Origin: Eubacteriales bacterium | GTDB taxonomy: Bacteria; Bacillota; Clostridia; Oscillospirales; CAG-272 | DNA length: 37,737 bases | NCBI GenBank assembly: GCA_045595265.1 | Contig: JAZOAA010000023.1 | Span: 1 to 37,737, forward strand | Reading direction: 5' to 3' | In this document: positions 1,175-28,338 of the stretch, piece after piece | Layout of the letters: every line of letters begins with the position of its first letter | Numbering within the stretch: position 1 is the first letter of the stretch | Notes under the pieces: model-generated | What the model was told of the DNA's origin: nothing | What the model saw: the letters and a program-made list of their open reading frames with translations, nothing else | Databases searched by the model: none | Program-made: the position numbers and the translations under genes

Positions 1175-2188
1175 TCATTTATCTAATATGGAAAGCTCAA
1201 CATGGTTAATATCGGAATATTCCTTAAATATCACGTCACGAACTCCGAGCTTTTCCGTTAAAGTAATCTTGTTTTTTCTTTTTTGCCCGATAGCCTTTGA
1301 AAGCGTGCCAAGCGGCACTTTAACAAGTAACATATCGTCTTTTTTTAATATCAGTTCTTTTGCTTTAGCATATATCTCGTCAAAATACAGCTTATTTTCA
1401 ACTAGCTCCCCAAGCGACGGGTGATTAGGACCTGCAAAATACGTATCGTCACTGCAAAGGTTATCAGAGGCGCAAAGTCCAAGACGTATAACGCCAACTC
1501 CCGATTTTCTGAAAAGCTTTAGCACCTCGGCGCATCTGTTTACAGCTTCTTCAAGGGTTAGAGGGCTATATTTTCCCTGCTTAGCCATCTCACACAGCTC
1601 GGTATCGCGAAATACCACCGTAGGATAAACCCTTGCGAATGAGGCTCCCGAGTTTATAATAAAACGAGCCGTATCCATCTCACTCTTAAGGGTTGATCCA
1701 GGCAAGCCTATCATCATTTGACCTACGAGCGTAATGCCCGAATCCACGATTAGCTTGCAAGCTCTGATCTCATCATCAGCGGTGTGACCGCGCTTTGATC
1801 GTCGAAGAACCTCGGGATCAACGCTTTGAAGTCCAAGCTCTACCGTGCTGACACCGTAGCGCTTAAGAGTTGAAATGATTTTTTCGTCAATGTAATCGGG
1901 TCTTGTCGAACAGCGAATCGACGTCACAAGACCGCGTTCAATATAAGAGTGAGCAATTCGTAGCAACTCGGTCATCAAGGCAAAATCAATGCCTGTAAAA
2001 GAACCGCCAAAAAAAGCTATCTCTACCTCATCATCTTTAGAAACCGTTGAAAGCGCCTCATCAATTATCTTTTCGGTTTCCGAAGGATCAAAGCTCTCAA
2101 CGCCCGAAATTGTATGTTGATTGCAAAAAACACAGTTGTTCGGACACCCGAGGTGCGGAATAAAAACCGGGATATTAATATGTCTCAT
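1175..2188 (-). CDS. Radical SAM protein (ELP3-like/COG1243-type, function unknown)
   Basis: 337-aa ORF with N-terminal CPNNCVFC (CxxxCxxC) cluster motif. ATGA start/stop overlap with rnc; sits between rnc and smc. Confidence 0.8.
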   Translation of the reverse strand: MRHINIPVFIPHLGCPNNCVFCNQHTISGVESFDPSETEKIIDEALSTVSKDDEVEIAFFGGSFTGIDFALMTELLRIAHSYIERGLVTSIRCSTRPDYIDEKIISTLKRYGVSTVELGLQSVDPEVLRRSKRGHTADDEIRACKLIVDSGITLVGQMMIGLPGSTLKSEMDTARFIINSGASFARVYPTVVFRDTELCEMAKQGKYSPLTLEEAVNRCAEVLKLFRKSGVGVIRLGLCASDNLCSDDTYFAGPNHPSLGELVENKLYFDEIYAKAKELILKKDDMLLVKVPLGTLSKAIGQKRKNKITLTEKLGVRDVIFKEYSDINHVELSILDK

Positions 2189-2901
2189 ATTAAAGCACCG
2201 AAAAGCGCAAGCGCTTCTTTTGCCGCGAGCATCTCGGCATCTTTTTTATTAGATGCACTTCCTCTGCCGACCTCATTGTTGTTTACAAATGCTGCGACGG
2301 TAAAGGTTTTATCATGATCGGGACCGCTCTGCTCTACGATCTTGTATTCTAACACCGCTGTACCGTCTTGCTCGGTGAGCTGTTGCAGTTTAGTCTTATA
2401 ATCTGTTGTATGGGCAGATGAGAGTCCTGAAAGCTCTTTAGCGTAAAGAGCAAGTATCACACCTCGGCATCTCTCGGCACCAAGCTTTGCGGCATCAAGA
2501 TATATTGCGCCAAAAACAGCCTCAAGTGCATCGGCTAAAATTTTCGGTCTGCTTCTGCAATCACTGTTTTCTTCTCCGTGACCTAGGTTAAGATATTCAC
2601 CCAAACTTATTTCTGCCGCGATTTTTGATAGCGTTTTTTCACAAACCAATGATTGACGCATCTTCGTCAGAGCACCCTCGCGGTATTTTTTGAAATTAGA
2701 ATAAAGATATTCCGATATTACAAGCTCAAGCACAGCATCACCGAGAAACTCGAGGCGCTCGTTAGATGATGTGTTAATACCGCGGGCACGCTGCTCGTTA
2801 GTATACGAGGAATGAGTAAGAGCGAGCTCGAGATATGAGATATCCGTAAATGAATATCCCAAAACGCCTTGCAGCGCTATTATATCCTTACCTATTGCCA
2901 T
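2185..2901 (-). CDS. rnc: Ribonuclease III
   Basis: RNase III signature region NERLEFLGDAVLE and a C-terminal dsRBD-like tail. I place the start at ATG 2901 (MAIGKD), 5 nt after GGAGG; the track start at 2913 is a TTG inside the RBS. Confidence 0.93.
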   Translation of the reverse strand: MAIGKDIIALQGVLGYSFTDISYLELALTHSSYTNEQRARGINTSSNERLEFLGDAVLELVISEYLYSNFKKYREGALTKMRQSLVCEKTLSKIAAEISLGEYLNLGHGEENSDCRSRPKILADALEAVFGAIYLDAAKLGAERCRGVILALYAKELSGLSSAHTTDYKTKLQQLTEQDGTAVLEYKIVEQSGPDHDKTFTVAAFVNNNEVGRGSASNKKDAEMLAAKEALALFGALI

Positions 2902-2929
2902 ACCATCCTCCAAAGCATTTACTGCTTAA

Positions 2930-3967
2930 TTAAACCTTCTCGTACATTTTCTCTGCATCGGAGATCATCTTTTTGTCATCGTAATCCTCTGCGAAAATAG
3001 CAATATCGTCGTTTATTCCCGTCTGAACGAAGAATATAGCCTGACGAACAGCATTTTTTATCGCAACGGCATCAGATGATCCGTGAGCCTTGATTACAGG
3101 CTTTGAAATTCCAAGAAGAGGCGCTCCTCCATGCTCCGCCGAATCAAAGCGCTGACGCATTTCTTTTATTTTATCATACATTGTAAGTGTAGCAATCTTT
3201 GTTGCGGTATTGGCGGTAAGAACCTCCTTAAACGCTGACATAACAAACTTTGAAACGCCCTCTACGCTCTTGAGGAAAATATTTCCGGAAAAGCCGTCGG
3301 TAACTAGCACGTCGCATACACCGAAGGGCGCTTCTTTAGCCTCTACGTTTCCAACGAAATTAAGTCCCGACTCGGAAAGAAGCTGATATGACTCCGTTTG
3401 CAAAGCATTTCCTTTATTATACTCTGTACCGTTATTAAGCTGACCTACTCTTGGACGGTCGATACCGTATATTTTTTCCATATACTTCGAGCCCATAAAG
3501 GCAAATTGTATAATGTTATCCGACGTTACCGTAAGGTTAGCGCCCGAATCCATCAGAAGCATTGGATTTGCAAGCGGCAAAACGGAAGCTATCGCCGCTC
3601 TGTTTATACCGCGTATACGTCGTACTATTATCGTAGCACCGGTAATAAGTGCACCAGTGTTACCGGCACTTACAAATGCATCGGCATCGCCCTTTGATAA
3701 AGTCTTAAATCCGACACTCATAGAAGAATCCTTCTTATCTCTGACAACGGAAAGAGGGCTATCCTCCATGGTTATAACGGTATCTGCGTGAATTATTTCA
3801 ATCCCTGCAATGTCAATTTCGTTTTTTACCGCTACGTCCGAAATCACGTTCTCATCTCCAACAAGAACGATCTCGTGATCCTTAAATTCCTTTGCGGCAA
3901 GCGCAGCACCTTTAACGGTTTCAAGCGGAGCGTTATCTCCACTCATAGCATCAATCAATATTCTCAT
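2930..3967 (-). CDS. plsX: Phosphate acyltransferase PlsX
   Basis: 345 aa. N-terminus MRILIDAMSGDNAP and overall length are typical of PlsX; conserved neighbourhood with rnc. Confidence 0.93.
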   Translation of the reverse strand: MRILIDAMSGDNAPLETVKGAALAAKEFKDHEIVLVGDENVISDVAVKNEIDIAGIEIIHADTVITMEDSPLSVVRDKKDSSMSVGFKTLSKGDADAFVSAGNTGALITGATIIVRRIRGINRAAIASVLPLANPMLLMDSGANLTVTSDNIIQFAFMGSKYMEKIYGIDRPRVGQLNNGTEYNKGNALQTESYQLLSESGLNFVGNVEAKEAPFGVCDVLVTDGFSGNIFLKSVEGVSKFVMSAFKEVLTANTATKIATLTMYDKIKEMRQRFDSAEHGGAPLLGISKPVIKAHGSSDAVAIKNAVRQAIFFVQTGINDDIAIFAEDYDDKKMISDAEKMYEKV

Positions 3968-5312
3968 TTTCAGTCAAAGCTACGTAACTATCACGTATAA
4001 TGCCGAGCGAACGCTCTGCATACGCTTCATTACGACACCTTTTGCCTCCTTTAATTTTCTTATCAAACGGTGCTATGATGCCAAAATTTGCATTCATAGG
4101 CTGGAAGGACGAGCTTACACCGCCACAGCTGACGTATGATGCCAGCGCTCCAATCTCGGTCTCCTTCGGGAAAACGACGCTTTCTTTACCAAGGGCAAAT
4201 CTTGCGGCATTTAACCCGGCAACAAAGCCCGAGGACGTAGATTCGATATATCCCTCGACACCCGTCATTTGTCCTGCGAAAAAGACATTATTTCGTTCGC
4301 ACATGGAATAAACGGGTGTAAGGAATCCGGGAGAATTAATGTACGTATTTCTATGCATAACGCCATACCTGAAAAATTCACATGATTCTAGTCCGGGTAT
4401 AAGCCTGAAAACGCGCTTTTGCTCCTCAAATGTCAGATGAGTCTGGAATCCTACAATGTTATACATCGTTCCCTCTATGTTTTCGCGCCTTAGTTGAACT
4501 GTGGCAAATGCCTCCGACCCGGTTTTAGGATCTATGAGTCCTACGGGCTTCATCGGACCGAATCGCAGCGTATCGTATCCTCTTGACGCCATAACTTCAA
4601 CCGGCATACAACCTTCAAAAACGGTAAGCTCTTTTTCTTGAAGCTCTTTGTCAAATGCCTTAAGCGGTGCGACCTTTGAGGATATCAGCGCATTATAAAA
4701 AACGTCATATTCTTCTTTGGTGAATGGGCAATTCAAGTAATCCTTCGCATCGCCTTTACCGTATCTGGAAGCAAAAAATGCTTTGTCCATATTAACGGTA
4801 GAAAAATCGACAATAGGAGCTGCCACATCAAAGAAATGAAGCTCTCCGCCACCGGTGATTTCAGATATTCTTTGCGCCATTTTCTCAGAGGTCAGAGGGC
4901 CGGTCGCAACTACTGTTATATCATTAAAATCAATATCTGTTACTTCCCCTGAAATTACAGTGATATCCGGGTGAGATTTTATCTTATTGGTAACGTACTC
5001 GCTGAAGAGGTCGCGGTTAACGGCAAGTGCCGCACCGGCAGGCACTTGCGTAGCGTAAGCCGCTTCCATTATCAAAGAGCCCATAAGGCGCAGCTCCTCC
5101 TTGAGAAGTCCAACCGCGTTGTTTAACTGATTAGAGCGCAAGGAGTTAGAACATACAAGCTCTGCAAAGCCCTCTTTATGATGAGCCGGAGAAAATTTCT
5201 CGGGCTTCATTTCATAAAGCTCAACCCTGGCGCCCTGGCGAACTGCTTGCCAAGCCGCTTCACAGCCGGCGAGTCCTGCGCCGATTATTTTTACAAGTGG
5301 TTTTTGGCTCAT
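3951..5312 (-). CDS. trmFO: Methylenetetrahydrofolate--tRNA-(uracil-5-)-methyltransferase TrmFO
   Basis: 453 aa. FAD-binding N-terminus IIGAGLAGCEAAWQ; the classic dprA-topA-trmFO (gid) order of Firmicutes. Confidence 0.93.
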   Translation of the reverse strand: MSQKPLVKIIGAGLAGCEAAWQAVRQGARVELYEMKPEKFSPAHHKEGFAELVCSNSLRSNQLNNAVGLLKEELRLMGSLIMEAAYATQVPAGAALAVNRDLFSEYVTNKIKSHPDITVISGEVTDIDFNDITVVATGPLTSEKMAQRISEITGGGELHFFDVAAPIVDFSTVNMDKAFFASRYGKGDAKDYLNCPFTKEEYDVFYNALISSKVAPLKAFDKELQEKELTVFEGCMPVEVMASRGYDTLRFGPMKPVGLIDPKTGSEAFATVQLRRENIEGTMYNIVGFQTHLTFEEQKRVFRLIPGLESCEFFRYGVMHRNTYINSPGFLTPVYSMCERNNVFFAGQMTGVEGYIESTSSGFVAGLNAARFALGKESVVFPKETEIGALASYVSCGGVSSSFQPMNANFGIIAPFDKKIKGGKRCRNEAYAERSLGIIRDSYVALTENENID

Positions 5313-7582
5313 TATTCGATTACCGTCATTTCTTCCTCACGCTTATACGTGCATCCCTTATTCTTGCACAAAACAAGCTTTCTGCTCTTTCGGTAATAAA
5401 GCATGGAAGAGCAATTCGGACAAAGCTCATTCAAGGGCATATCCCAGGTGGAAAAATCACACTCGGGATATTTTTCACAACTGTAAAAGAGCATCTTACC
5501 CTTTCCGTGACGTGCAACTACCATAGAATTACATTTCGGGCATTTAACACCGGTTTCGCTTATCTTCTGCTTGGTGAAAGTACATTCGGGATAATTGGAA
5601 CAAGCAAAAAATGCTCCGTATCTTCCCTTGCGTATCACCATATCACCACCGCAAACCTCACACTTAAAGCCTGCAAGCTCAACCGTTTCGGGCTTAGGCT
5701 CAGCTACGTTACCGTCCTTGTCAAGAGCTTTTGTATTTTTACATTTCGGATAGTTCGGACAAGCAAGGAATTTTCCGAATCTGCCTGTCTTATATACCAT
5801 TTTTTCGCCACATTTATCGCAAATAACGTCGCTCTGCTCGGGCTGAATAGAAAATTTATCATTTTTCTCTGCCGAAAGAGCGGTTTTCAAATCTGACTCG
5901 AATTTTTTATAAAAATCAGAAAGAACACCGACGGTAGTATTCTCTTTATTTTCTATCGAATCAAGCTTCGTTTCCATCGAAGCCGTGAACTCGTAGTCAA
6001 TAATATCAGGGAAATATTCACGCATAAAATTGGTTGTAGCCTCGCCCAAGGGAGTTGCTACCAGGAATTTTCCCTCGCGCTTTATATATTCACGAGAAAT
6101 GATGATAGAAATTATAGGAGCATAGGTAGAGGGACGTCCTATACCGTTTTCCTTAAAGAAATCTATAAGCGAAGCTTCTGTATAACGAAGAGGCGGCTCG
6201 GTAAAGTGCTGCTGTTTTTTTAGCTCGGTGAGTGAGAGAGTCTCCCCCTCTTTGACTCCGGGAAGCCTTCCGATGGAAAGCATATCCTCGTCGGAGCTAT
6301 CGTCCTCTTTTTCGTAAGCGTCATATATTGCCAAATATCCTCTAAACCTAACCGTCTGACCACCGGTCTTAAAGATATAACCGGAATTTTCAATGTCAAC
6401 CGACACGGTATCAAGCTCGCAGGATTCCATTTGACTTGCAATAAATCTATCCCAAATAAGCTTATATAATCTATACTGTTCGGAGGTCAGCATTTTCTTT
6501 ACACTTTTAGGTGTAAGAGCAGGAGTTGAAGGTCTTATAGCCTCGTGTGCATCCTGTGCATTAGCGGTCGTCTTGTAAGTTCTCTGCGCCTTCGGAAGAT
6601 ATTCACTACCGTAATTATCAACAATATATTCTGCCGCAGCTTGCTCGGCAACAGCGGAAACTCTTGTGGAATCTGTACGCATATACGTGATAAGACCCTG
6701 AACACCGCCCAGATCTTGTCCAAGATTAAGACCATCGTAAAGTTCTTGCGCAACCTTCATTGTCTTTTGCGACTGGAAACCTAACTTCTTTGACGCCTCC
6801 TGAAGCATAGAGGACGTAGTAAAGGGAGGAGCGGGAGATTTATGCTTGATAGCATGCTTCACAGAAAGAACCTTATACCGCCCCTTATCAAGAGCGCTTG
6901 CGATTTTTTCCGCATCGGTTTGCGAAGTGATCTTTATTTTCTTGACATTATCACCGAAAAATCTCGCGGGAATAGTTTCGCCGCGCTCGTTGCCAAGAGT
7001 TACCTCTATCGTCCAATATTCTTGCGGAACAAAAGCTCGTATTTCTTCCTCGCGCTCTGTGATAATACGAGTAGCAACAGACTGCACTCTTCCGCCTGAA
7101 AGTCCGCTTCTGAGATTTTTCCAAAGCACCTCGCTTAAATTAAAGCCCACAAGTCTATCCAGTATACGTCTTGCCTGCTGAGAATTAACGAGATCCTCGT
7201 TTATTTTCCTCGGTTTCTTTATAGCTTCTTTAACAGCGCCCTTGGTAATTTCGTTAAATGTTACACGACATTCCTTATCTCTCGGAATGCCAAGTTCATT
7301 GGCAATATGCCAGGAAATAGCCTCTCCCTCACGGTCGGGGTCGGTTGCAAGGAAAATCTTTGTTGCGGATTTTGCCTCTTTTTTCAACTCTTTTATAACG
7401 TCACCCTTACCGCGAATATTTATATAATGAGGCTCGAAATTGTTGTTAACATCAATGCCGAGCGTGCTTTTAGGTAAATCGCGTATATGCCCCTTTGATG
7501 CTATTACTTTATAATTTTGTCCAAGATAGCCCTTTATTGTATTAGCCTTTGCAGGCGACTCAACTATTACAAGATTTGCCAT
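5312..7582 (-). CDS. topA: DNA topoisomerase I
   Basis: 756 aa. TOPRIM N-terminus MANLVIVESPAKA...DPDREGEAI and several C-terminal CxxC...CxxC zinc ribbons. TAATG overlap with the trmFO start. Confidence 0.96.
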   Translation of the reverse strand: MANLVIVESPAKANTIKGYLGQNYKVIASKGHIRDLPKSTLGIDVNNNFEPHYINIRGKGDVIKELKKEAKSATKIFLATDPDREGEAISWHIANELGIPRDKECRVTFNEITKGAVKEAIKKPRKINEDLVNSQQARRILDRLVGFNLSEVLWKNLRSGLSGGRVQSVATRIITEREEEIRAFVPQEYWTIEVTLGNERGETIPARFFGDNVKKIKITSQTDAEKIASALDKGRYKVLSVKHAIKHKSPAPPFTTSSMLQEASKKLGFQSQKTMKVAQELYDGLNLGQDLGGVQGLITYMRTDSTRVSAVAEQAAAEYIVDNYGSEYLPKAQRTYKTTANAQDAHEAIRPSTPALTPKSVKKMLTSEQYRLYKLIWDRFIASQMESCELDTVSVDIENSGYIFKTGGQTVRFRGYLAIYDAYEKEDDSSDEDMLSIGRLPGVKEGETLSLTELKKQQHFTEPPLRYTEASLIDFFKENGIGRPSTYAPIISIIISREYIKREGKFLVATPLGEATTNFMREYFPDIIDYEFTASMETKLDSIENKENTTVGVLSDFYKKFESDLKTALSAEKNDKFSIQPEQSDVICDKCGEKMVYKTGRFGKFLACPNYPKCKNTKALDKDGNVAEPKPETVELAGFKCEVCGGDMVIRKGRYGAFFACSNYPECTFTKQKISETGVKCPKCNSMVVARHGKGKMLFYSCEKYPECDFSTWDMPLNELCPNCSSMLYYRKSRKLVLCKNKGCTYKREEEMTVIE

Positions 7583-7616
7583 ATATCAAAAGCGAGCTTG
7601 TCGCTTCCTTTCTCTG

Positions 7617-8906
7617 TTATTTTTTTCTCATCACGCGCTCCGCAGGGAGCATCACAACAAATCCGCCCATCTCTAATTTCAAGAGCGCCCTCATTACCTT
7701 TCTAAGATCCGTACTGTCATCGACAAGATCCTCAATGGCGCAATCACCCGTTAGCGGAATTTTTTTATAAAGTGAAATGGTCTGTTTATCAAACTCATCG
7801 TTTGTAGGCTCAACATACTCCTCTGTCTTCTTTTCATCAATAGGCACGACGAGCTTGCTTGTTGCAGAGATGTTGTTGCGCCGTGAGCGATTCTCTGATT
7901 TCTCTTTCGGCGCAGAGCCGCTCCTAAAAATATCATCATTCGGTGCTACCGCAATTACAGAATACCTTCTCAATGCATCCATGACGTTCACGGGACATTT
8001 TTCGGGAAGATTAAAGGGATTTATAACTCCGGGGTAAACGTCCTTAAAATCTCTTATAACGTCATCTGCGCAGGTAAAAAGCATTGCACCGTTTTTTATA
8101 AGCATATTCGTTGCTTGACTGTTCTTTTGATCAACGCTTCCCGGTAAAGCGTAAACGACCTTCCTCTGCTCTATCGCGTGACGCGCTGTTATCAAAGAAC
8201 CGCTGCGCTCCTTTCCCTCAACAACAAGTGTCGTAGCGGAAAGACCGCTTATCAATCTGTTTCTCTTCGGGAACGTCGTACGCGAGGGCTTGGTTCCGGG
8301 TGGAAATTCGGTTATAACACAGCCGCGCTTGACAATCTCCCTCGCAAGACGCAAATGCCCCTCAGGATAACAAACGTTTATGCCCGTACCGATAACCGCA
8401 ACCGTAATTCCGTCAGCCGCTAAAGCTCCCGCGTGAGATATTCCGTCTATTCCCATCGCCATGCCTGAAACTATTATCGAACCCGCGGAAGCAAGATCGT
8501 ATGCTACATTAAACGCTACGTTTCTTCCATAATCGGAAATAGAGCGAGTACCAACCATAGCAACGGCAAAATTCTTATTAAAATCGGGAAATGTTCCTCT
8601 GTAATACAAAAGAACGGGCGGTGTCGGTATCTCGCGCAAGGATTCGGGAAAATTCTCATCTGCATACGTTACTATGCCGACGTTGTTTTTTTCACAAAAT
8701 TCAAGTATTTTAGCGGCTTCGGTAAGATCCTTTTCCGCTAAGCGAGAACGGTCTGAAGAACGAGTACCTATATACTTTGATAACTCGTAAAGCTCAGCTT
8801 CATAAATTTCCTTAGCGCCCGCAAAATTTGAAATTAGTTTCTTGAAGACTCTGGAATCGGGAGTTACCGCTAAAGATAACCAGATCCAATATACGATATC
8901 TCTCAT
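7617..8906 (-). CDS. dprA: DNA processing/protecting protein DprA (Smf)
   Basis: 429 aa. Rossmann-like core VSGMAMGIDGISHAGAL...GSLITA typical of DprA; located upstream of topA. Confidence 0.88.
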   Translation of the reverse strand: MRDIVYWIWLSLAVTPDSRVFKKLISNFAGAKEIYEAELYELSKYIGTRSSDRSRLAEKDLTEAAKILEFCEKNNVGIVTYADENFPESLREIPTPPVLLYYRGTFPDFNKNFAVAMVGTRSISDYGRNVAFNVAYDLASAGSIIVSGMAMGIDGISHAGALAADGITVAVIGTGINVCYPEGHLRLAREIVKRGCVITEFPPGTKPSRTTFPKRNRLISGLSATTLVVEGKERSGSLITARHAIEQRKVVYALPGSVDQKNSQATNMLIKNGAMLFTCADDVIRDFKDVYPGVINPFNLPEKCPVNVMDALRRYSVIAVAPNDDIFRSGSAPKEKSENRSRRNNISATSKLVVPIDEKKTEEYVEPTNDEFDKQTISLYKKIPLTGDCAIEDLVDDSTDLRKVMRALLKLEMGGFVVMLPAERVMRKK

Positions 8907-8924
8907 ACCACAATCTCCTTAAAT

Positions 8925-9755
8925 TCATTTATTTTGTTCCCACATAAAAACAGCTGCCGCAACCGAAGCATTTAGCGACTCTGTTCTCTCGGAAATCGGA
9001 ATATAAATGCTTCCAGTGCAAACAGTTGATATCTCCTCGGGTATGCCGTGCCCTTCATTGCCGATAACAAAAATGTCGGTGGGCAATAGGTGAATATCTC
9101 TTATTGAGCTGGCACCGTCACGAAGTTCTGCGGCAAAAACGCGTCTGTTCGATTGACGAGCCGACGTGATAAAAGAAGAAAAATCATTCACAACGCTGAT
9201 CTTTACCGCAAAAAGATTTCCCATAGCGCTTCTTACAGTCTTGGGATTATATATATCGGCAGAGTCCGAAGACACAACGATGTGATCAACTCCAAAAGCA
9301 ACCGCGCTTCTGATAACTGAGCCGAGATTTGACGGATCTCTTACCGAGCAAAGTGCTATACAACGTTCATTATCCGAAAGAAAAAACTCTTCCTTATATA
9401 TTATATCCAATTTCTTGAAAAAGTCAAGATGTTTTATTACCGCAATTATACCTTCAGGCGCTTTTTCAGTAGAAATTTTTTCAAAAGCGCTATCGGAAAC
9501 AATAATAATCTCGGTTTCATCAAATGATGAGTCCGACAAAGCAGCGGTTATCCCTTCGAGATTTTTATCTTTTTTGGATTCGGAAATGAATATATACATT
9601 ATAGGCAGCTTATGTTTTATAGCCTCAAAGACGAGCTTTTCGCCCTCCGCCAAGAATGCTTCCGATTTTTGTCTTTCCTTCTTTTCGGAAAGTGAAGTCG
9701 CCCACTTTACAAGCGGATTATTACGACTGCTCAAGATTTCCTGCCGAATTTTCAT
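8925..9755 (-). CDS. TrmH/SpoU-family RNA 2'-O-methyltransferase
   Basis: 276 aa. SpoU motifs NLGSVIRSA, VIGNEGHGIPEE and SLNASVAAAV. Confidence 0.85.
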   Translation of the reverse strand: MKIRQEILSSRNNPLVKWATSLSEKKERQKSEAFLAEGEKLVFEAIKHKLPIMYIFISESKKDKNLEGITAALSDSSFDETEIIIVSDSAFEKISTEKAPEGIIAVIKHLDFFKKLDIIYKEEFFLSDNERCIALCSVRDPSNLGSVIRSAVAFGVDHIVVSSDSADIYNPKTVRSAMGNLFAVKISVVNDFSSFITSARQSNRRVFAAELRDGASSIRDIHLLPTDIFVIGNEGHGIPEEISTVCTGSIYIPISERTESLNASVAAAVFMWEQNK

Positions 9756-9816
9756 TTTTTAGTCAAACGCCAAAACATCGGCGCCATATCCTTTCGAGAA
9801 AATATATTCACTATAC

Positions 9817-9859
9817 AAAAGAAAAACACCCGATTAACCGTATGATCGGAAAATCGGGT
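9817..9859 (-). terminator. Intrinsic terminator after rplT
   Basis: Minus-strand hairpin ACCCGATT...AATCGGGT (9828-9835 / 9852-9859) followed by GTTTTTCTTTT. Confidence 0.75.
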
Positions 9860-9871
9860 AATTTTTTCAAA

Positions 9872-10225
9872 TTAAAGCGCAGCCTTTGCGCGCTCACAAA
9901 TTGCAGCGAAAGCTTCCTTGTCAGAAACTGCAAGCTCTGCAAGCATCTTACGGTTAAGATCGATACCTGCAACCTTGAGACCGTGCATAAGTGTGGAATA
10001 GTTCATTCCGCAAACCTTAGCCTGTGCAGAAATTCTGGTAATCCAGAGAGAACGGAAGTCTCTCTTCTTCATCTTACGGCCTGCAAAAGCGTAATTACCG
10101 CTCTTAAGCACGGCCTGCTTAGCCATCTTAAAGTGCTTGGACTTTGAGCCCCAGTAACCCTTTGCAGCCTTGAGTATATTCTTTCTTCTCTTGCGCGTCA
10201 TCATAGCGCCCTTAACTCTTGCCAT
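9872..10225 (-). CDS. rplT: 50S ribosomal protein L20
   Basis: 117 aa, [26 protein letters not shown]; infC-rpmI-rplT operon order. Confidence 0.97.
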
Positions 10226-24353: not shown

Positions 24354-24411
24354 TTCAAAAGATAAGATTTTACCTATTTACTATATTCATAACAAACAAC
24401 AAAACATAGTG

Positions 24412-25809
24412 TTATTTATTCTTCAAATGGTAATATGCTTTCATTTTTGTTTTTGCCTGTAAGCACTGTACATCAGAGCGTTTCAAATAACCGTTTTCAA
24501 GATACCCCATTCCCGGACAATAATTACAAAAGGCGCAGTAATCCTCTTTATAACATTCTTTGCAGTCTGCCAAAGTAACTTGATGCCATTTATAAAGACG
24601 GCTGGCTTTATCTTTTTCCATTGCGGCTTGCCATATATCTTCCATGGATTTTTCATTTAGGTTTCCAACAGAATACGGTAAAGATACGCAAATTACCACC
24701 TCTCCGTTAGGTGTAACAGTAAGCCCTGTATATCCGCCGAGACACGGTGTTGAGTCTGCTATGTTTGTTATATCAAGAGGCTTGAATTTTTCATCGAGAT
24801 ATAGTGGCGAGTTCGGATTAGTGTAAAGTTCGAACAACTCATCTTCTGAAAGGAGAAATTTCATCGTCTTTTTGTTACCTTCAATAGTGGGAATCAAAGA
24901 TATATCGGCAATTGAAGTTGCGCCTATTTCAGCAGCATATTCCTTAACTTTTATACAATCCATGCAATTGAAATTAAGCAAAAAGTTTTTGATTTGAACA
25001 TTCAAATTATCGCCTTTCATTTTGTCTATCAGCGAATATGTCTTTTTGAATGATCCCTCGATGTCTGTTACTCTGTCATGTGTTTTTTCATTTGTACTAT
25101 AAAGGCTTACGCAAATTCTATACGGAAATAACTCCTTTACTTCGGTATACAGTTTTTCGTTATCCGCAAAAACTTGACCGTTAGTAAATATTTCCACCGA
25201 AATGTGCTTACTTCTTGCATATTTTATAAGGTCTAAAAAGCGAGAATGAAGAGAAGATTCTCCGCCCGAAAAAGTTATACGAAAGCAACCCATTTCATAA
25301 GCATCGTCTATTGCTTTTTTACACATGTCGTAATCAATTTCCACATTGTTCATGTGCTTGGGATTGTAGCAATGTACGCATTTTAGGTTACAGCGATACG
25401 TAAGCTCAAAGAACAGCGAAAACATAAACTTGTTCTTAAAAAGCCATGTTTGCATTTGCTCGATAAATGAGGTTTCCTCCCCCGAGGTGGCGATATCGTC
25501 GCAAACCGGTGCATAGCTTGTACTTAACTGTTGTTCGCTTTTTTTGAAAACAATAAGGCCTTGTTCTGCGAGAGAATCAATAAAATCATAAACTTGCTCC
25601 GCTACTCCGTTTTTCTCAGCAAAATCAGCAAGTTCCTCGTCACAAACCCTATCATATAGCAGCTTCCATAAATCGCTGGATATGCCGTCTAACTGAATAT
25701 ATTCGTGGCTTTTTTCATTTGAAATGTAAGTTCTGCTTTCTTTTTTTCCGAAAAAATATGTATGACAGGAAATCCAGTTTGGTATGAAGATTTCATCTAC
25801 GCTTATCAT
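24412..25809 (-). CDS. Radical SAM/SPASM peptide-modifying enzyme with an N-terminal PqqD-like (RRE) domain
   Basis: 465 aa. About 100 N-terminal aa resemble a PqqD/RRE winged helix (YIQLDGISSDLWKLL...FIDSLAEQGLIVF). CNLKCVHC is the CxxxCxxC motif. The C-terminal Cys-rich region (CLGGYTG...TPNGEVVIC...CKECYKEDYCAFCNYCPG...C) is a twin auxiliary-cluster SPASM pattern. ATGA overlap with the upstream gene. Confidence 0.85.
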   Translation of the reverse strand: MISVDEIFIPNWISCHTYFFGKKESRTYISNEKSHEYIQLDGISSDLWKLLYDRVCDEELADFAEKNGVAEQVYDFIDSLAEQGLIVFKKSEQQLSTSYAPVCDDIATSGEETSFIEQMQTWLFKNKFMFSLFFELTYRCNLKCVHCYNPKHMNNVEIDYDMCKKAIDDAYEMGCFRITFSGGESSLHSRFLDLIKYARSKHISVEIFTNGQVFADNEKLYTEVKELFPYRICVSLYSTNEKTHDRVTDIEGSFKKTYSLIDKMKGDNLNVQIKNFLLNFNCMDCIKVKEYAAEIGATSIADISLIPTIEGNKKTMKFLLSEDELFELYTNPNSPLYLDEKFKPLDITNIADSTPCLGGYTGLTVTPNGEVVICVSLPYSVGNLNEKSMEDIWQAAMEKDKASRLYKWHQVTLADCKECYKEDYCAFCNYCPGMGYLENGYLKRSDVQCLQAKTKMKAYYHLKNK

Positions 25810-26708
25810 AATATAAATGCCTCTTTGTTTAATATTTTTTGTATACGAACGCTTTGGTTTATAAATTCCGGATTTATAACATTATATTCTTCAATAAAAG
25901 TATCATAAATGTCAAATAAATTATATTCTTTTAACAAAAGCGCTCTTAGCTGAAGACATATCTCTGCTCCGTATAGAACTTCTTTTTCCTTACGTTCGTT
26001 GGGAATCTGTGTTCCGTCGGTTCCGTCAAAAAGCATAATGTCAGGCGCTGTTAGCCACTCATAGTCAACTACTTCTGCCAGCATGGTTACGTTGCCGTAA
26101 TCAAGAGTGTCGTTTATAAAATGATTTTTGTGCAGTATTGCAACGCTTTTTGCCAGTTCCCTAGTGAATCTATTTGGATACTCGTCAACAGATATTCCCC
26201 AATAATCACAACAATATTTTATAACAGATTCTTTTTCGTTTTCGGTGAGATACATTAAATCTGCCACGCGAAAAGGGCACTTTAACTTTGTATAAATAAT
26301 ACACGGCGAAACTAATGCTCCGTTGCTGAATTTTATATTTTTAAGGAAATCATATTTTTTCGGCAACAGGAAATCAGATATTTTTTTATAATATAATACC
26401 TTTGGAAATCTATCTGAAATCTTTTCTATTTTGCGGCTTACTTCTAATTCTCTTATGGCAGAGGAGGATGGATACAAACCGAAAATTAACTCTTCGTCTT
26501 TGGTGGAAATATAAATTTGAGGACCGTTATAGTTCCAGCCACCTCCTTTTACGTTTATCCAGTTATAATCGCCTGCTTTTATCGCAACTGCTCTTCCATG
26601 AAAAGGAGAAACATGTGTGGCTTTTACATTTTCGTAGTTGATTTCGTCAGGAACAAAAATTCTTCCCAGCGTTTCGTCATTAAAAATTTTGAATTTTTCG
26701 AATTTCAT
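25806..26708 (-). CDS. Hypothetical protein, possible ATP-dependent (kinase-like) peptide-modifying enzyme
   Basis: 300 aa from ATG 26708 (AGGAAAA RBS); the track start at 26756 lies inside the upstream hairpin. No family recognised. Weak motif resemblance to the kinase fold: RAVAIKAG, RELEV, HFINDTLDYGNV (Brenner-like) and VVDYEW (IDFEY-like). Confidence 0.55.
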   Translation of the reverse strand: MKFEKFKIFNDETLGRIFVPDEINYENVKATHVSPFHGRAVAIKAGDYNWINVKGGGWNYNGPQIYISTKDEELIFGLYPSSSAIRELEVSRKIEKISDRFPKVLYYKKISDFLLPKKYDFLKNIKFSNGALVSPCIIYTKLKCPFRVADLMYLTENEKESVIKYCCDYWGISVDEYPNRFTRELAKSVAILHKNHFINDTLDYGNVTMLAEVVDYEWLTAPDIMLFDGTDGTQIPNERKEKEVLYGAEICLQLRALLLKEYNLFDIYDTFIEEYNVINPEFINQSVRIQKILNKEAFIL

Positions 26709-26729
26709 ATTTTTATTTTTCCTATATTC

Positions 26730-26775
26730 AAAAATGTAAATCCGCCAGATATGCAAAAACCTGCCTGGCGGATTT
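26730..26775 (-). terminator. Intercistronic hairpin / leaky terminator between the peptide gene and the enzyme genes
   Basis: Perfect 11-bp stem AAATCCGCCAG / CTGGCGGATTT (26765-26775 / 26738-26748) with a 16-nt loop. It is followed on the minus strand by ACATTTTTG. No U-tract on the plus strand. Confidence 0.6.
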
Positions 26776-26798
26776 ATGTTAGCATTATGCCGGCAATA

Positions 26799-26900
26799 TT
26801 AGCCCATTTTTGCACGAATACCGCAAGAATGGTCAGTCATCTTACCGCAACCGGACATACTAGCAACGTGCTGTGCAGCCTTCTTTGTAATCTTAAGCAT
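26799..26900 (-). CDS. 33-aa putative RiPP precursor peptide MLKITKKAAQHVASMSGCGKMTDHSCGIRAKMG
   Basis: Hand-translated. ATG 26900 lies 7 nt after AGGAGG; TAA at 26799-26801. It is first in an operon with a radical SAM/SPASM-RRE enzyme and has its own consensus promoter. Below the 60-aa ORF-track cutoff. Confidence 0.65.
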   Translation of the reverse strand: MLKITKKAAQHVASMSGCGKMTDHSCGIRAKMG

Positions 26901-26926
26901 TTGATAATCCTCCTTTTTTGATTTTT

Positions 26927-26943
26927 GAGTTATATTTTAACTC
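26927..26943. promoter_or_regulatory. Palindrome GAGTTA-n5-TAACTC (candidate operator) in the peptide-gene 5' UTR
   Basis: Perfect 6+6 inverted repeat between the -10 element and the RBS of the peptide gene. It shares the AGTTA/TAACT half-site with the repeat at 26967-26994. Confidence 0.45.
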
Positions 26944-26952
26944 AGCGAGAAT

Positions 26953-26981
26953 ATTATATACCCTTTTTAACTGTTTGTCAA
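26953..26981 (-). promoter_or_regulatory. Promoter of the peptide/maturase operon
   Basis: Minus strand: TTGACA (26976-26981), 17 nt spacer, TATAAT (26953-26958). Confidence 0.7.
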
Positions 26982-27006
26982 TAGTTTTAGTTAAAAATGC
27001 TATAAT
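26967..27006 (+). promoter_or_regulatory. XRE-gene promoter (extended -10) with flanking TTAACT...AGTTAA inverted repeat
   Basis: TGCTATAAT at 26998-27006 with a weak -35 overlapping the opposite promoter's -35. TTAACT (26967-26972) and AGTTAA (26989-26994) bracket both -35 elements. Confidence 0.5.
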
Positions 27007-27042
27007 TAAAATGAACAAAAAAGCATATAAGGGGAAGAAACG

Positions 27043-27315
27043 ATGAATGTTGGTAAGAAAATACGCGATGCAAGAGAAGATATGGATTTATCGCAGCGCG
27101 ATATGGCAAATCTTATTCCCATGAATCAGTCCAATTATTCTAAAATAGAACGTGACATTCAGGAACCTAATATGGACCAGCTCCGCAGGATTTGTCAGAT
27201 ACTCAATATTGATCCCCGATATTTGTTAAATCTGGGGGAGTACTCTTCTGTAACAGATGCTGATATTACTTTGCTCAAGGATATAAAGCGTTTTATAAAA
27301 GAACATAATGTATAA
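27043..27315 (+). CDS. XRE/Cro-C1-family HTH transcriptional regulator
   Basis: 90 aa. IRDAREDMDLSQRDMANLIPMNQSNYSKIERDIQEPNMDQL is a canonical HTH_3 pattern. Divergent from the peptide operon. Confidence 0.85.
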   Translation: MNVGKKIRDAREDMDLSQRDMANLIPMNQSNYSKIERDIQEPNMDQLRRICQILNIDPRYLLNLGEYSSVTDADITLLKDIKRFIKEHNV

Positions 27316-27316
27316 T

Positions 27317-27346
27317 AAAAACGCAGCGTATAAACGCTGCGTTTTT
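27317..27346. terminator. Bidirectional terminator between the XRE gene and rsmA
   Basis: AAAAACGCAGCG-tataaa-CGCTGCGTTTTT; perfect stem with A/T tracts on both sides. Confidence 0.85.
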
Positions 27347-27347
27347 A

Positions 27348-28205
27348 TTAGTTTTCAGACAAATAATTTGCAAGATTTGCAAAATCCTCGGTCGATAGGC
27401 GCTCTCCTCTGACCTTCTCGTCCTTACCGATAGCGACAATAGCTTCGGTAATCTGTTCTTTAGAGTAAACGGGGAGCTTTGCAGAAATAGCGTTCTGGAG
27501 AGTTTTTCTTCTCATCTCAAACGCGGCTTTAATAAGGTTGAAGAAGAGCTTTTCATCCTTTATTTCAAACGGCGGCTTATCATATAGGTCTATACGAACA
27601 ACGGCGCTGTCCACCTTTGGTGCAGGTACGAAGCACCCCGCCGAAACCTTAAAGAGTCTGCGCACGCTTCCGTAATAACCCAGAACGGCGGTTATTGCGC
27701 CGTAATCCGCGCTTCCCTCCTTCGCCGCGAGTCGAGTGGCAACCTCGTTCTGTACCATTACCGTGATGGACGAAAGCTTTACGTCCGACTCTAGAAGCCG
27801 CATAAGTATCGGAGTTGTGATATAATAAGGAAGATTTGCGCAAACGGATACGGGCATACCTTCAGAATACTCATCTATCAGCGCGCGAAGATCGACCTTC
27901 ATAATATCGTCATTAATGATTGTGATATTGTCAAAATCGGCAAGAGTTTTCGAAAGTACGGGAATAAGTCCGCGATCTATCTCAACTGCTACTACCTTCT
28001 TGTACCTCATTGCCAGCTCTTGTGTAAGGCAGCCAATGCCGGGACCGATCTCGAGGATCATTCTATCCTCTGTATCGGCGCAGTTATCAGCTATCTGCTC
28101 GGGTATCATTCTGTTAATAAGAAAGTTCTGACCAAATTCCTTGCGGAATGTGATTCCTGCATCGGCCATTACCGATTTTATTACAGATAGATTACATAAG
28201 TCCAT
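27348..28205 (-). CDS. rsmA: 16S rRNA (adenine1518/1519-N6)-dimethyltransferase RsmA/KsgA
   Basis: FGQNFL, EIGPGIGCLT SAM motif and NLPYYITTPI. ATG 28205 follows GAGGGAA. Confidence 0.94.
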   Translation of the reverse strand: MDLCNLSVIKSVMADAGITFRKEFGQNFLINRMIPEQIADNCADTEDRMILEIGPGIGCLTQELAMRYKKVVAVEIDRGLIPVLSKTLADFDNITIINDDIMKVDLRALIDEYSEGMPVSVCANLPYYITTPILMRLLESDVKLSSITVMVQNEVATRLAAKEGSADYGAITAVLGYYGSVRRLFKVSAGCFVPAPKVDSAVVRIDLYDKPPFEIKDEKLFFNLIKAAFEMRRKTLQNAISAKLPVYSKEQITEAIVAIGKDEKVRGERLSTEDFANLANYLSEN

Positions 28206-28262: not shown

Positions 28263-28338
28263 TGGAGCTGATGAGGGGACTTGAACCCCTGACCTGTTGA
28301 TTACGAATCAACTGCTCTACCAACTGAGCCACATCAGC
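28263..28338 (-). tRNA. tRNA-Thr (anticodon CGU), CCA encoded
   Basis: GCTGATGTGGCTCAGTTGGTAGAGCAGTTGATTCGTAATCAACAGGTCAGGGGTTCAAGTCCCCTCATCAGCTCCA folds by hand into a full cloverleaf: 7-bp acceptor, GCTC/GAGC D stem, GTTGA/TCAAC anticodon stem with loop TTCGTAA, and AGGGG/CCCCT T stem with a TTCAAGT loop. Confidence 0.93.

Follow-up and report, generated by a model that had tools for sequence, protein, structure and literature searches.

A compact SelO-like kinase-fold protein encoded in a radical SAM/SPASM peptide cassette

The window, that is to say the whole stretch of 37,737 nucleotides that was analysed, contains a compact three-gene set in which the ORF of a 300-aa kinase-like protein lies between the gene for a 33-aa precursor peptide and that for a radical SAM (rSAM)/SPASM maturase (Table 1). 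This placement had been described in a first-pass annotation, together with an ATGA junction at the rSAM start, and both the sequence and the gene calls agree with it. The bases at the junction read ATGA on the coding strand, and the TGA stop codon of the kinase-like gene thus overlaps the ATG start codon of the rSAM gene. According to gene calls, the same 4-nt overlap is found in four other loci (L001, L002, L004 and L005), and a 1-nt overlap in L003. A longer, TTG-started version of the kinase-like ORF (to 26756) was rejected because the homologues start at ATG. The ORF is a real gene and not a chance reading frame, since it has homologues in 92 clusters at 46–100% identity, a profile search retrieves relatives in 134 representative clusters, and the fold of its product is predicted with confidence.

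Several other elements accompany these three genes. The sigma-70-type sequence is likely the operon promoter. The hairpin between the precursor and kinase-like genes has a computed RNA folding energy of -27.2 kcal/mol (z -2.98 versus shuffles) and was not called by a simple terminator scan; in a putative role as leaky terminator or attenuator, it would set the peptide:enzyme ratio. L001 and L026 have orthologues of the XRE regulator (71–77% identity), placed divergently as in the window; upstream HTH_3 gene calls are seen in L001 and L003, and the regulator is found in a minority of loci only. No protease or transporter gene is present in the window cassette. The XRE regulator, the mobile-element flanks and weak pVip matches of the rSAM core prompted the thought of anti-phage defence. 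Such a function was not retained as the leading idea: the kinase-like protein has no PADLOC match, a related operon includes an ABC exporter, and the pVip matches of the rSAM protein concern its generic core only.

Table 1. Features of the peptide/kinase-like/rSAM locus, with positions in the window.
Feature	Position	Strand	Evidence or remark
Radical SAM/SPASM peptide maturase, 465 aa, CNLKCVHC cluster motif	24412-25809	minus	Pfam
ATGA stop/start overlap of the kinase-like and rSAM genes	25806-25809	minus	plus strand reads TCAT
Kinase-like gene, 300 aa (MKFEKF...)	25806-26708	minus	ATG start; ORF and translation
13-bp G+C-rich hairpin and downstream U-rich tract	26728-26776	minus	between the precursor and kinase-like genes
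Precursor peptide, 33 aa, MLKITKKAAQHVASMSGCGKMTDHSCGIRAKMG	26799-26900	minus	ORF
Sigma-70-type promoter, TTGACA-17-TATAAT	26953-26981	minus	12/12 consensus, upstream of the precursor gene
XRE/HTH_3 regulator, 90 aa	27043-27315	plus	divergent; PADLOC HTH models 1.8e-12
Key residues of the 300-aa protein: H37-G38-R39, K54-GGGWNY, R86-E87, R147, D150, N199-D200-T201, N206, D215-Y-E217			

The maturase is recognised by Pfam through its Radical_SAM (3e-17), SPASM (1e-9) and Fer4_12 domains. Its PqqD-like N-terminus (residues 31–86), of the RRE type, is borderline, with 22.6 bits for a Pfam cutoff of 23.4. The protein falls below every NCBIfam equivalog cutoff, AlbA, StsB and SkfB being among the matches, and its nearest relative of solved structure is SkfB (6efn, E 9.5e-11). 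The precursor family has no match in NCBIfam or Pfam. It was analysed through 41 distinct homologous precursors encoded beside kinase-like genes, the consensus of which reads …MSGC-G-K-x2-D-x2-CG-I-x2-K-x-G. Only C18, C26 and G27 are invariant, followed in conservation by K/R31 (40/41), K/R20 (39/41), D/E23 (35/41) and G33 (35/41), and the tail after C26 always comprises seven residues. The C-terminal Gly33 thus lies exactly 7 residues past Cys26, and Asp/Glu23 is nearly invariant. None of the 41 precursors' Ser, Thr or Tyr positions is invariant, and three precursors have no such residue between the two Cys, so that there is no evident site for classical O-AMPylation or O-phosphorylation. The modification of a peptide Ser or Thr, put forward in the first-pass annotation, is weakened accordingly.

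The three genes travel together. About 55 loci contain the trio; they come from genomes of Clostridia, Spirochaetia and Gastranaerophilales and from various metagenomes. It is present in 24 of the 25 loci from genomes or assemblies, within unrelated flanks, and a homologous rSAM gene adjoins the kinase-like gene in 40 loci; for metagenome loci, the rSAM gene is seen in most cases where the contig reaches far enough. Across the 56 loci compared, the kinase-like and rSAM genes are the only ones widely shared; the cassette has no conserved lyase or cyclase gene. Even relatives of the 300-aa protein at only 18–28% identity have homologues of the rSAM gene and of the peptide as neighbours. Homologues living apart from such neighbours had been named beforehand as evidence against a joint function, and what is seen is the opposite, since they almost always adjoin an rSAM gene and a peptide gene. 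One of the most distant relatives (P0222) is not beside an rSAM gene, and another (P0209) is on a contig too short for neighbours to be seen. A second association is seen in distant loci, where a GT9 glycosyltransferase gene directly adjoins and overlaps the kinase-like gene (L007, L029, L042 and L059) or is adjacent to it (L032), the order of the two genes varying among loci. The GT gene is absent from the cassette in the close family (92 clusters, 24 loci examined). An ABC exporter belongs to the operon in a single locus, L059. Domain fusions were also sought, yielding an N-lobe joined to an Exo_endo_phos domain (P0132) and P0201, with nothing interpretable. The peptide/kinase-like/rSAM trio is a self-contained, horizontally mobile cassette. 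It displays what is expected of rSAM/SPASM RiPP clusters, namely a short precursor, a SPASM maturase with a borderline RRE, and a trio kept as a unit.

At the sequence level, the 300-aa protein indeed belongs to no recognisable family, as had been noted from its letters: no significant match was obtained in Pfam, NCBIfam, PADLOC or PDB sequences. It contains no HExxH, GxGxG or CxxC motif and no Cys cluster, its Cys being limited to residues 136, 144, 166, 167 and 251, which confirms the earlier reading. The AlphaFold (AF2) model is a confident one (pLDDT 88.6, pTM 0.89), and its comparison with the PDB by Foldseek bears out the kinase-like fold that had been guessed by eye, the best 50 matches all being kinase-fold proteins. 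Ranks 1–9 are occupied by SelO/YdiU structures, with a probability of 1.00, E-values from 3.5e-5 to 2.5e-4 and TM-scores of 0.51–0.57 on the query; PRPK/Bud32 structures are among the best non-SelO matches.

Profile comparisons lead to the same relative. A wide profile was built from 50 diverse relatives, 15–38% identical to the window protein, which an all-against-library profile search had supplied, and the SelO match emerged only once these relatives were included. Aligned with hhalign to E. coli SelO, this profile gives 91% probability and an E-value of 1e-6 over 167 columns, reaching only SelO residues 84–273. Comparisons with WaaP, WaaY, UbiB and SrkA give 3.4% at most (about 3% for WaaP and WaaY, 0.5% for the APH-type kinase SrkA), which speaks against the choline-kinase/APH likeness initially suspected. 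Searched against the PDB with hmmsearch, the wide profile finds P. syringae SelO first (E 0.0016). The link is a distant one. The Pfam SelO model does not match the window protein even at E <= 1, and two or three distant relatives match it below threshold (13–18 bits for a cutoff of 22.8). The narrow-family profile has no significant hhalign match to SelO, and a search with it returned a spurious proteasome match only, so that the SelO relationship depends on the wider profile and on the structure. The matches listed in a homologue search with E. coli SelO were all enterobacterial, with identities of 79% or more, and were left out of the profiles. As judged from these alignments and from the model, the 300-aa protein belongs, as a compact member, to a branch of the protein-kinase-like superfamily that had no annotation so far, with the SelO (YdiU) AMPylase/UMPylase as its nearest characterised relative.

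The relationship with SelO gives insights into the active site. The roles of the SelO residues K113, E136, R176, R183, N253 and D262 are taken from a review (PMC8097203), where R176 and R183 hold the gamma-phosphate of the flipped ATP. In the profile alignments, these positions correspond to K54 (the beta-3 Lys, K113 in P. syringae SelO), E87 (E136), T140 (R176), R147 (R183), N206 (N253) and D215 (D262); in the alignment to E. coli SelO, K54 falls on K107 and E87 on the IRE motif. Among the 50 diverse relatives, K54, G55, G57, G77 and N206 never vary, and conservation reaches 90% or more at H37, R39, R147, D150, T208 and D215. For E87, the close family shows no variation, and most members of the wider family have Glu or Asp; the spacing of N206 and D215 (N + 9 = D) equals that of SelO. 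A predicted nucleotide- and metal-binding set is thus retained, comprising K54, E87, N206 and D215, plus R147 and the G-R motif (H37-G38-R39). Of the two gamma-phosphate Arg, the second is kept as R147; the equivalent of the first, R176, is always Thr (T140) in the clade of the window protein and Arg in the most distant relatives.

Comparison with these alignments shows which motifs picked by eye were well chosen. All the strings quoted are present, RAVAIKAG at 39, RELEV at 86, HFINDTLDYGNV at 196 and VVDYEW at 213. E87 as the alpha-C Glu, N206, and D215 as the Asp of an IDFE/DFG-type motif are conserved and aligned with their counterparts in SelO and in kinases. The lysine was not well chosen: K44, taken for a VAIK lysine, is replaced by Ala, Pro or Gln in some close homologues, whereas K54, in KGGGW, is invariant. 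The most conserved motif, H37-G38-R39 ... K54-G-G-G-W-N-Y, had been overlooked. The extra residue ascribed to a Brenner motif results from a misalignment, since the alignments with SelO and with the bona fide kinase LegK4 need no insertion. N199-D200-T201 aligns with H-R-D of LegK4 and with H-G-V of SelO, which places a Thr at the position of the canonical catalytic Asp. In these alignments, the HRD catalytic Asp is therefore missing in the 300-aa protein, as in SelO. Two other positions differ from SelO: the HRD Arg position is an invariant Asp (D200) in the 300-aa family, and the Asp preceding the metal-binding Asn in SelO is replaced by Gly, Ser or Ala (G205 in the window protein).

From alignments, model and gene context taken together, the 300-aa protein is, on balance, rather likely to modify the peptide as an ATP-dependent transferase of the SelO kind, its gene being co-transcribed with that of the rSAM/SPASM maturase and coupled to it in translation. 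The rSAM enzyme would bind the leader through its RRE-like N-terminus and install a Cys-derived crosslink, and the kinase-fold enzyme would spend ATP to modify the same peptide covalently. A SelO-style transfer of AMP (nucleotidyl transfer) appears the most probable reaction, ahead of phosphoryl transfer or carboxylate activation; an AMP adduct, already mentioned in the first-pass annotation, would fit this closest structural relative. In the distant relatives, the GT9 glycosyltransferase may tailor the product further, and the ABC transporter of one locus may export it. The kinase fold can adenylate or activate a carboxylate, or transfer NMP, rather than phosphorylate: SidJ is a kinase-fold glutamylase working via an acyl-adenylate, and NiRAN is another non-canonical kinase-fold enzyme. 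A bolder and rather unlikely proposal, drawn by analogy, is that the enzyme adenylates a peptide carboxylate (Asp/Glu23 or the C-terminal Gly33) or nucleotidylates a Cys, in the manner of SelO or SidJ; the activated intermediate would close a thiolactone or lactam ring, or the nucleotide would be left on the peptide, alongside the rSAM crosslink.

A protein devoid of the HRD Asp, encoded beside a peptide without a conserved hydroxyl acceptor, could also be no transferase at all. It might serve the rSAM maturase as a non-catalytic or ATPase-only scaffold, chaperone or switch, a role comparable to that of Bud32/PRPK towards Kae1 or of UbiB/COQ8 within its own complex. The tight and conserved translational coupling to the rSAM gene is in line with such a role, as is the presence of PRPK/Bud32 among the best non-SelO structural matches. 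However, relatives at 15–38% identity keep the Lys/Glu pair, the Asn and Asp of the metal site and the phosphate-binding Arg without change or in at least 90% of cases, a pattern typical of active transferases, and distant loci couple the kinase-like gene to GT9 and not to the rSAM gene. An ATPase would keep the same residues, and their conservation thus argues only against a pure scaffold. This explanation is regarded as unlikely.

Phosphorylation of the core could also prepare elimination to Dha/Dhb and thioether formation, in the manner of class III/IV/V lanthipeptide or thioamitide pathways; the enzyme would then be a conventional Ser/Thr peptide kinase, the main idea of the first-pass annotation. 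The kinase-like fold is compatible with it, most precursors carry a Ser or Thr at position 16, 22 or 25 together with the two Cys, and one distant member weakly matches Pfam APH and Pkinase. The window protein itself matches neither (PF01636, PF00069), its family shows the negligible SrkA score given above, the catalytic Asp is absent and the cassette lacks a conserved lyase or cyclase. The variability of Ser and Thr in the precursors is further evidence against a lanthipeptide-style kinase, which makes this interpretation improbable. A sugar or glycopeptide might instead be the acceptor, a substrate conceivable because GT9 adjoins the kinase-like gene in the five distant loci. The protein would then be a sugar/glycopeptide kinase or nucleotidyltransferase partnering the heptosyltransferase-like GT9 enzyme, as WaaP/WaaY and GT9 enzymes do in LPS core synthesis, and would have been kept in the window's clade after GT9 loss. 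Such a history is very improbable, given that the close family has no GT gene, yet keeps every active-site residue, and that the scores against WaaP and WaaY are low. Finally, an ATP-grasp ligase, suggested by nothing beyond generic Lys, Glu and Asp residues, can practically be dismissed by the fold search, the confident model matching kinase-fold structures only, with no ATP-grasp protein in the best 50 and no Pfam match at E <= 1.

The retained reading of a SelO-like transferase connects two fields. Radical SAM RiPP pathways are a main source of new peptide chemistry, and SelO-type "pseudokinases" are a recent case of the kinase fold carrying non-kinase chemistry. Here, from Clostridia of gut and rumen to remote relatives in metagenomes, a SelO-like family whose active site seems intact accompanies an rSAM/SPASM maturase and a sharply conserved peptide with two Cys. 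Should the enzyme AMPylate or activate the peptide, no earlier SelO-like enzyme would have had a small, genetically defined substrate of its own, and RiPP biosynthesis would gain a new post-translational step. If the adenylation of a carboxylate or nucleotidylation of a Cys held true, the cassettes would represent a RiPP class of their own, with a reaction type new to the kinase fold in the biosynthesis of peptide natural products. No description of a SelO-like or kinase-like enzyme paired with a radical SAM RiPP maturase was found in the literature available as full text, a coverage outside which many subscription papers lie. The set points to an undescribed peptide-modification pathway, and its three genes make it small enough for direct reconstitution.

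Among known systems, SelO/YdiU (PF02696; PDB 6eac, 6k20, 6iii, 6lna) is the best structural match and the sole kinase-like family reached by profile comparison. Besides the protein-kinase-like fold, both proteins have in common a G-R motif on the strand preceding the beta-3 Lys, the K-G-x-G-x-T/N sequence following this Lys, R-E in alpha-C, the Arg equivalent to SelO R183, and the N...(8)...D-Y metal ligands. SelO is larger (about 480 aa), with a C-terminal domain of about 200 aa bearing a regulatory Cys/Sec, which is absent here, the window protein stopping at residue 300. Unlike the SelO family, the window protein stays below the Pfam SelO threshold, and whereas SelO is a stand-alone housekeeping gene, the 300-aa protein is encoded in a peptide/rSAM cassette.

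Kinases are also known in RiPP biosynthesis, such as the kinase domains of LanKC/LanL and the APH-type kinases LxmK and TvaC of class V lanthipeptides and thioamitides. They are canonical kinases with an HRD/HxD Asp, target Ser/Thr and work with lyase and cyclase partners. A kinase-fold enzyme encoded beside a Cys-containing precursor is the common point with the present cassette, which differs by having no catalytic Asp, no conserved Ser/Thr and no lyase or cyclase. Another non-canonical kinase-fold case, the pseudokinase CalN, is cited in PMC13060819. The likeness to SidJ, NiRAN and CalN is mechanistic only, no specific sequence or structural similarity being detected here. With respect to the known rSAM RiPP classes, the rSAM protein lies below the NCBIfam equivalog cutoffs and the precursor outside NCBIfam and Pfam. 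The second enzyme, a SelO-like kinase-fold protein, is what distinguishes the cassette from those of sactipeptides and ranthipeptides, for which no such partner was found described. The closest parallels are nevertheless the sactipeptide (SkfB, AlbA) and ranthipeptide/SCIFF (CteB, PapB) cassettes, where the gene for a short Cys-containing precursor likewise adjoins that of an rSAM/SPASM maturase whose N-terminus is RRE-like.

The 300-aa kinase-like protein is encoded by a real and conserved ORF, preceded by the gene of a 33-aa precursor (MLKITKKAAQHVASMSGCGKMTDHSCGIRAKMG) and followed by the radical SAM (rSAM) gene. The forward strand reads TCAT at the junction of the two enzyme genes, ATGA on the coding strand, so that the kinase-like stop codon overlaps the rSAM start, as the first-pass annotation had proposed. 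Between the precursor and kinase-like genes lies a 13-bp hairpin with a AAAUCCGCCAGGC...GCCUGGCGGAUUU-type stem (-27 kcal/mol, z -2.98), a putative leaky terminator that may maintain a high peptide:enzyme ratio. At several homologous loci, the peptide stop overlaps the kinase-like start in its place. The divergent XRE regulator has counterparts 71-77% identical at two other loci, L001 and L026. A tRNA-Thr gene is also found nearby.

Cassette and neighbouring features of the window, with loci at which a GT9 gene abuts the kinase-like gene
Feature	Position	Strand	Remarks
Kinase-like gene	26708 (ATG) to 25806 (TGA)	-	300 aa
rSAM gene	24412-25809	-	downstream of kinase-like gene
ATGA stop/start overlap	25806-25809	-	
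Precursor ORF	26799-26900	-	upstream of kinase-like gene
Sigma-70 consensus promoter	26981-26953	-	TTGACA-17-TATAAT, 12/12 matches; ~50 nt upstream of precursor start codon
Hairpin	26728-26776	-	U-rich tail
XRE regulator	27043-27315	+	
tRNA-Thr (CGU)	28263-28338	-	just past rsmA, ~1 kb from cassette
GT9/kinase-like, L007	2839-3744		
GT9/kinase-like, L029	2406-3251		
GT9/kinase-like, L032	492-1367		
GT9/kinase-like, L042	1180-2211		
GT9/kinase-like, L059	5762-6763		

The rSAM protein carries Radical_SAM (3e-17) and SPASM (1e-9) domains in Pfam, with a PqqD-like N-terminus just below threshold. It matches many peptide maturases in NCBIfam (mycofactocin, AlbA, StsB, SkfB, PqqE) and misses every equivalog cutoff; its closest solved relative is the sactisynthase SkfB.

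The three genes recur together. In five assembly loci found through exact-protein look-up (L001-L005), the peptide, the 300-aa gene and the rSAM gene follow each other with the same 4-nt (or 1-nt) overlap, while the flanks differ and often carry mobile-element genes (integrase and Xis, relaxase and MobC, resolvase). A scan with one genome per species gave 19 loci, from Clostridia, Christensenella, Eubacteriales, a Spirochaetia MAG and two Gastranaerophilales MAGs. With the window's proteins as tblastn queries, the trio was found together in 24 of 25 loci; the other neighbours (glpK, rsmA, a CAP/LysM protein, an AraC regulator) are not common to these loci, the one exception being a weak AraC-family match in L001. 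Even relatives only 18-28% identical, P0099 (L007, a JGI metagenome) and P0160 (L029, a Logan run assembly), have as neighbours an rSAM homologue (28-29% identity, E 1e-38 to 1e-48) and homologous peptides ending in …RSGCSKSITRTCGVTYRGG and …MSGCPKASTGSCGIAYRFG. Another 30 loci came from metagenomes scanned with a mid-distance profile; there, rSAM is adjacent in most contigs of sufficient length and same-family peptides lie between or before the genes. ORF clustering over 56 loci recovered the kinase-like gene in 56 and the rSAM gene in 40, with nothing else widely shared. This survey, distant relatives included, thus answers the concern that homologues might usually occur without an rSAM or peptide gene. 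The linkage of the kinase-like gene to those of an rSAM/SPASM maturase and a conserved peptide is obligatory, and includes translational coupling. P0222, among the farthest relatives (E ~1e-3), stands alone beside feoB and PEPCK genes. On a short contig missing its upstream side (L030, 1131-2670), P0129 (~24% identical in the wide alignment described below) is followed by two TerB-domain proteins, not by rSAM. Two further genes are found repeatedly in the vicinity of the kinase-like gene, in five metagenome loci each (e.g. L051, 1690-2544; L060, 546-1301): one encodes a UPF0489 protein, the other a protein with weak resemblance to 2OG-Fe(II) oxygenases.

G+C content is ~35% in the cassette (24400-27400) versus 42-46% for glpK and rsmA, the housekeeping genes on its flanks, which is consistent with horizontal acquisition; together with the mobility genes beside it elsewhere, this contrast suggests that the cassette is horizontally mobile. 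A GT9 gene (ADP-heptose heptosyltransferase family) abuts the kinase-like gene at five loci, overlapping it in four, and stands before or after it in these distant relatives; none is present in the Clostridia-type cassette. The arrangement suggests either that the peptide is optionally tailored by glycosylation or that GT9 and the kinase-like protein are functionally linked. At L059, a G+C-rich 120-kb metagenome contig, a longer operon with 4-nt overlaps (1940-9976) encodes an unknown 349-aa protein, rSAM, peptide, kinase-like protein, GT9, a fused ABC exporter (575 aa) and unknown proteins of 145 and 346 aa; it is the only locus examined at which an export gene was seen.

Direct searches with the kinase-like protein returned nothing significant in Pfam, NCBIfam, PADLOC or PDB sequences, so that its description as a protein of no recognisable family is correct at this level. 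The motifs initially read by eye are all present (RAVAIKAG at 39, RELEV at 86, HFINDTLDYGNV at 196, VVDYEW at 213), HExxH and GxGxG are absent as claimed, and no CxxC motif was found. A search of a 5.8-billion-protein collection gave 92 homologue clusters (~300 aa, 46-100% identical), all without a Pfam domain; those with a name are labelled 'hypothetical protein' and come from Clostridia or Clostridiales MAGs. With a profile searched against 1.84 billion cluster representatives, the family grew to 134 clusters. The narrow alignment (36 of the 92 clusters) shows invariant H37-G38-R39, W50, K54-G-G-G-W-N-Y60, G62-P63, K70, R86-E87, P135, T140, R147, H193, F197, D200, N206, T208, E212, D215-Y-E217, R239 and K242-E243. 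Across the wide alignment (50 of the 134, with 15-38% identity to the window protein), K54, G55, G57, G77 and N206 are still invariant, and conservation reaches at least 90% at H37, R39, A84, P135, R147, D150, T208 and D215.

The AlphaFold2 model built on the narrow alignment (mean pLDDT 88.6, pTM 0.89) is weak only at residues ~55-80, the loop after K54. It shows a predicted kinase fold with SelO (YdiU), an AMP-transferring enzyme, as the closest relative: Foldseek matches 1-9 in the PDB are SelO/YdiU (6iii, 6k20, 6lna, 9jym, 6eac, 9l29, 9jyn; E 3.5e-5 to 2.5e-4, query-normalised TM 0.51-0.57), followed by PRPK/Bud32, Abl, PDK1, EGFR and other protein kinases. Since no non-kinase fold occurs among the top 50, the initial kinase-fold proposal was right, and the ATP-grasp alternative is excluded.

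Profile comparisons point the same way. The wide alignment matches E. coli SelO (from NC_000913) with 91% hhalign probability (E 1e-6, 167 columns), versus 3.4% at most for E. coli WaaP, WaaY, UbiB and SrkA. Searched against all PDB sequences (hmmsearch), it places P. syringae SelO first (E 0.0016), then LegK4, E. coli and Salmonella YdiU, and ordinary kinases last. Two to three of the most distant members match Pfam SelO below threshold, and one distant member weakly matches Pkinase and APH.

The alignments also revise two motif assignments. K44 of RAVAIK, initially read as VAIK-like, is replaced by Ala, Pro or Gln in three close homologues and unconserved further out; the invariant lysine is K54. 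The supposed Brenner motif has no extra residue: N199-D200-T201-L-D-Y-G-N206 falls without gap on H-R-D-L-K-P-G-N, in alignment both to SelO and (HMMER) to LegK4, a bona fide kinase. Thr therefore occupies the place of the canonical catalytic Asp, where SelO has Val. D200, at the 'R' position of HRD, is probably functional, because it is invariant in close and mid-distance relatives, and is perhaps a relocated base.

The residue map onto SelO, whose residue roles are reviewed in PMC8097203, is consistent between alignments. H37-G38-R39 corresponds to D-G-R of the GDGR motif, K54 (K-G-G-G-W-N) to the beta-3 Lys (K113 in P. syringae, L-K-G-A-G-x-T), R86-E87 to I-R-E with E136, T140 and R147 to the gamma-phosphate arginines R176 and R183, N206 to N253 and D215 (D-Y-E) to D262 (D-Y-G). 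The retained Lys/Glu pair, metal ligands and phosphate-binding Arg imply, at the sequence level, a working nucleotide site.

The precursors bear on the acceptor. Among 41 distinct sequences, C18, C26 and G27 are invariant, followed by K/R31 (40/41), K/R20 (39/41), G17, D/E23 and G33 (35/41 each), I28 (34/41), M15 (33/41) and S16 (30/41). The cysteines are always seven residues apart, and the C-terminus always lies seven residues past C26. No position is invariably Ser, Thr or Tyr. Residue 22 varies (T, S, N, Q, F, W, Y or I), and in three precursors the stretch between the cysteines lacks any hydroxyl residue. This pattern argues against a lanthipeptide-style kinase acting on Ser/Thr, the target first suggested. 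What remains as candidate acceptors are the cysteines, the side chain of Asp/Glu23, the carboxylate of the C-terminus or a group made by rSAM. At L043 (3745-4056), the kinase-like gene is preceded by two tandem, divergent precursor genes, for MLKIAGIYSHEVKTMANCNRAQRRNCGITYRSM and MLKIKAICDHNIKAMSNCPRDTEIQCGINYRSY; in the former, neither Asp/Glu nor a hydroxyl residue lies between the cysteines. The Gastranaerophilales MAGs (L024, 3782-3883; L027, 3799-3900) carry a variant precursor, MLKISRIARHTV..MGTCPEYSEIMCGILYRCC, with Glu at position 20 for Lys/Arg and a Cys-Cys end for x-Gly.

The kinase-like enzyme would modify the peptide using ATP. We judge it slightly more likely than not that the enzyme is an active transferase that depends on ATP and acts on the peptide pathway, with about half of this probability going to nucleotidyl transfer. 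AMP transfer would be the most likely chemistry because of the SelO-type features: no HRD Asp, a K-G-x-G motif and an R183 equivalent. Phosphoryl transfer, carboxylate adenylation of the SidJ type and a role as ATPase or scaffold are less probable alternatives.

The Asn-to-Asp spacing is identical to that of SelO. In contrast, the Asp just before the SelO Asn is Gly, Ser or Ala in the family (often His in distant relatives), the C-terminal domain is missing, and so is one of the two arginines; the most distant relatives have Arg at both positions. With this domain and this arginine missing and a score below the Pfam SelO threshold, the protein belongs to a distinct, smaller sister family and is not a SelO orthologue. 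Full-text searches of part of the literature turned up no account of the precursor family, nor of an rSAM/SPASM maturase accompanied by a SelO-like or kinase-like partner. The three-gene system is directly testable. The cassette is of the rSAM RiPP type, with a second enzyme that represents a new family on the SelO-like branch of the kinase superfamily.
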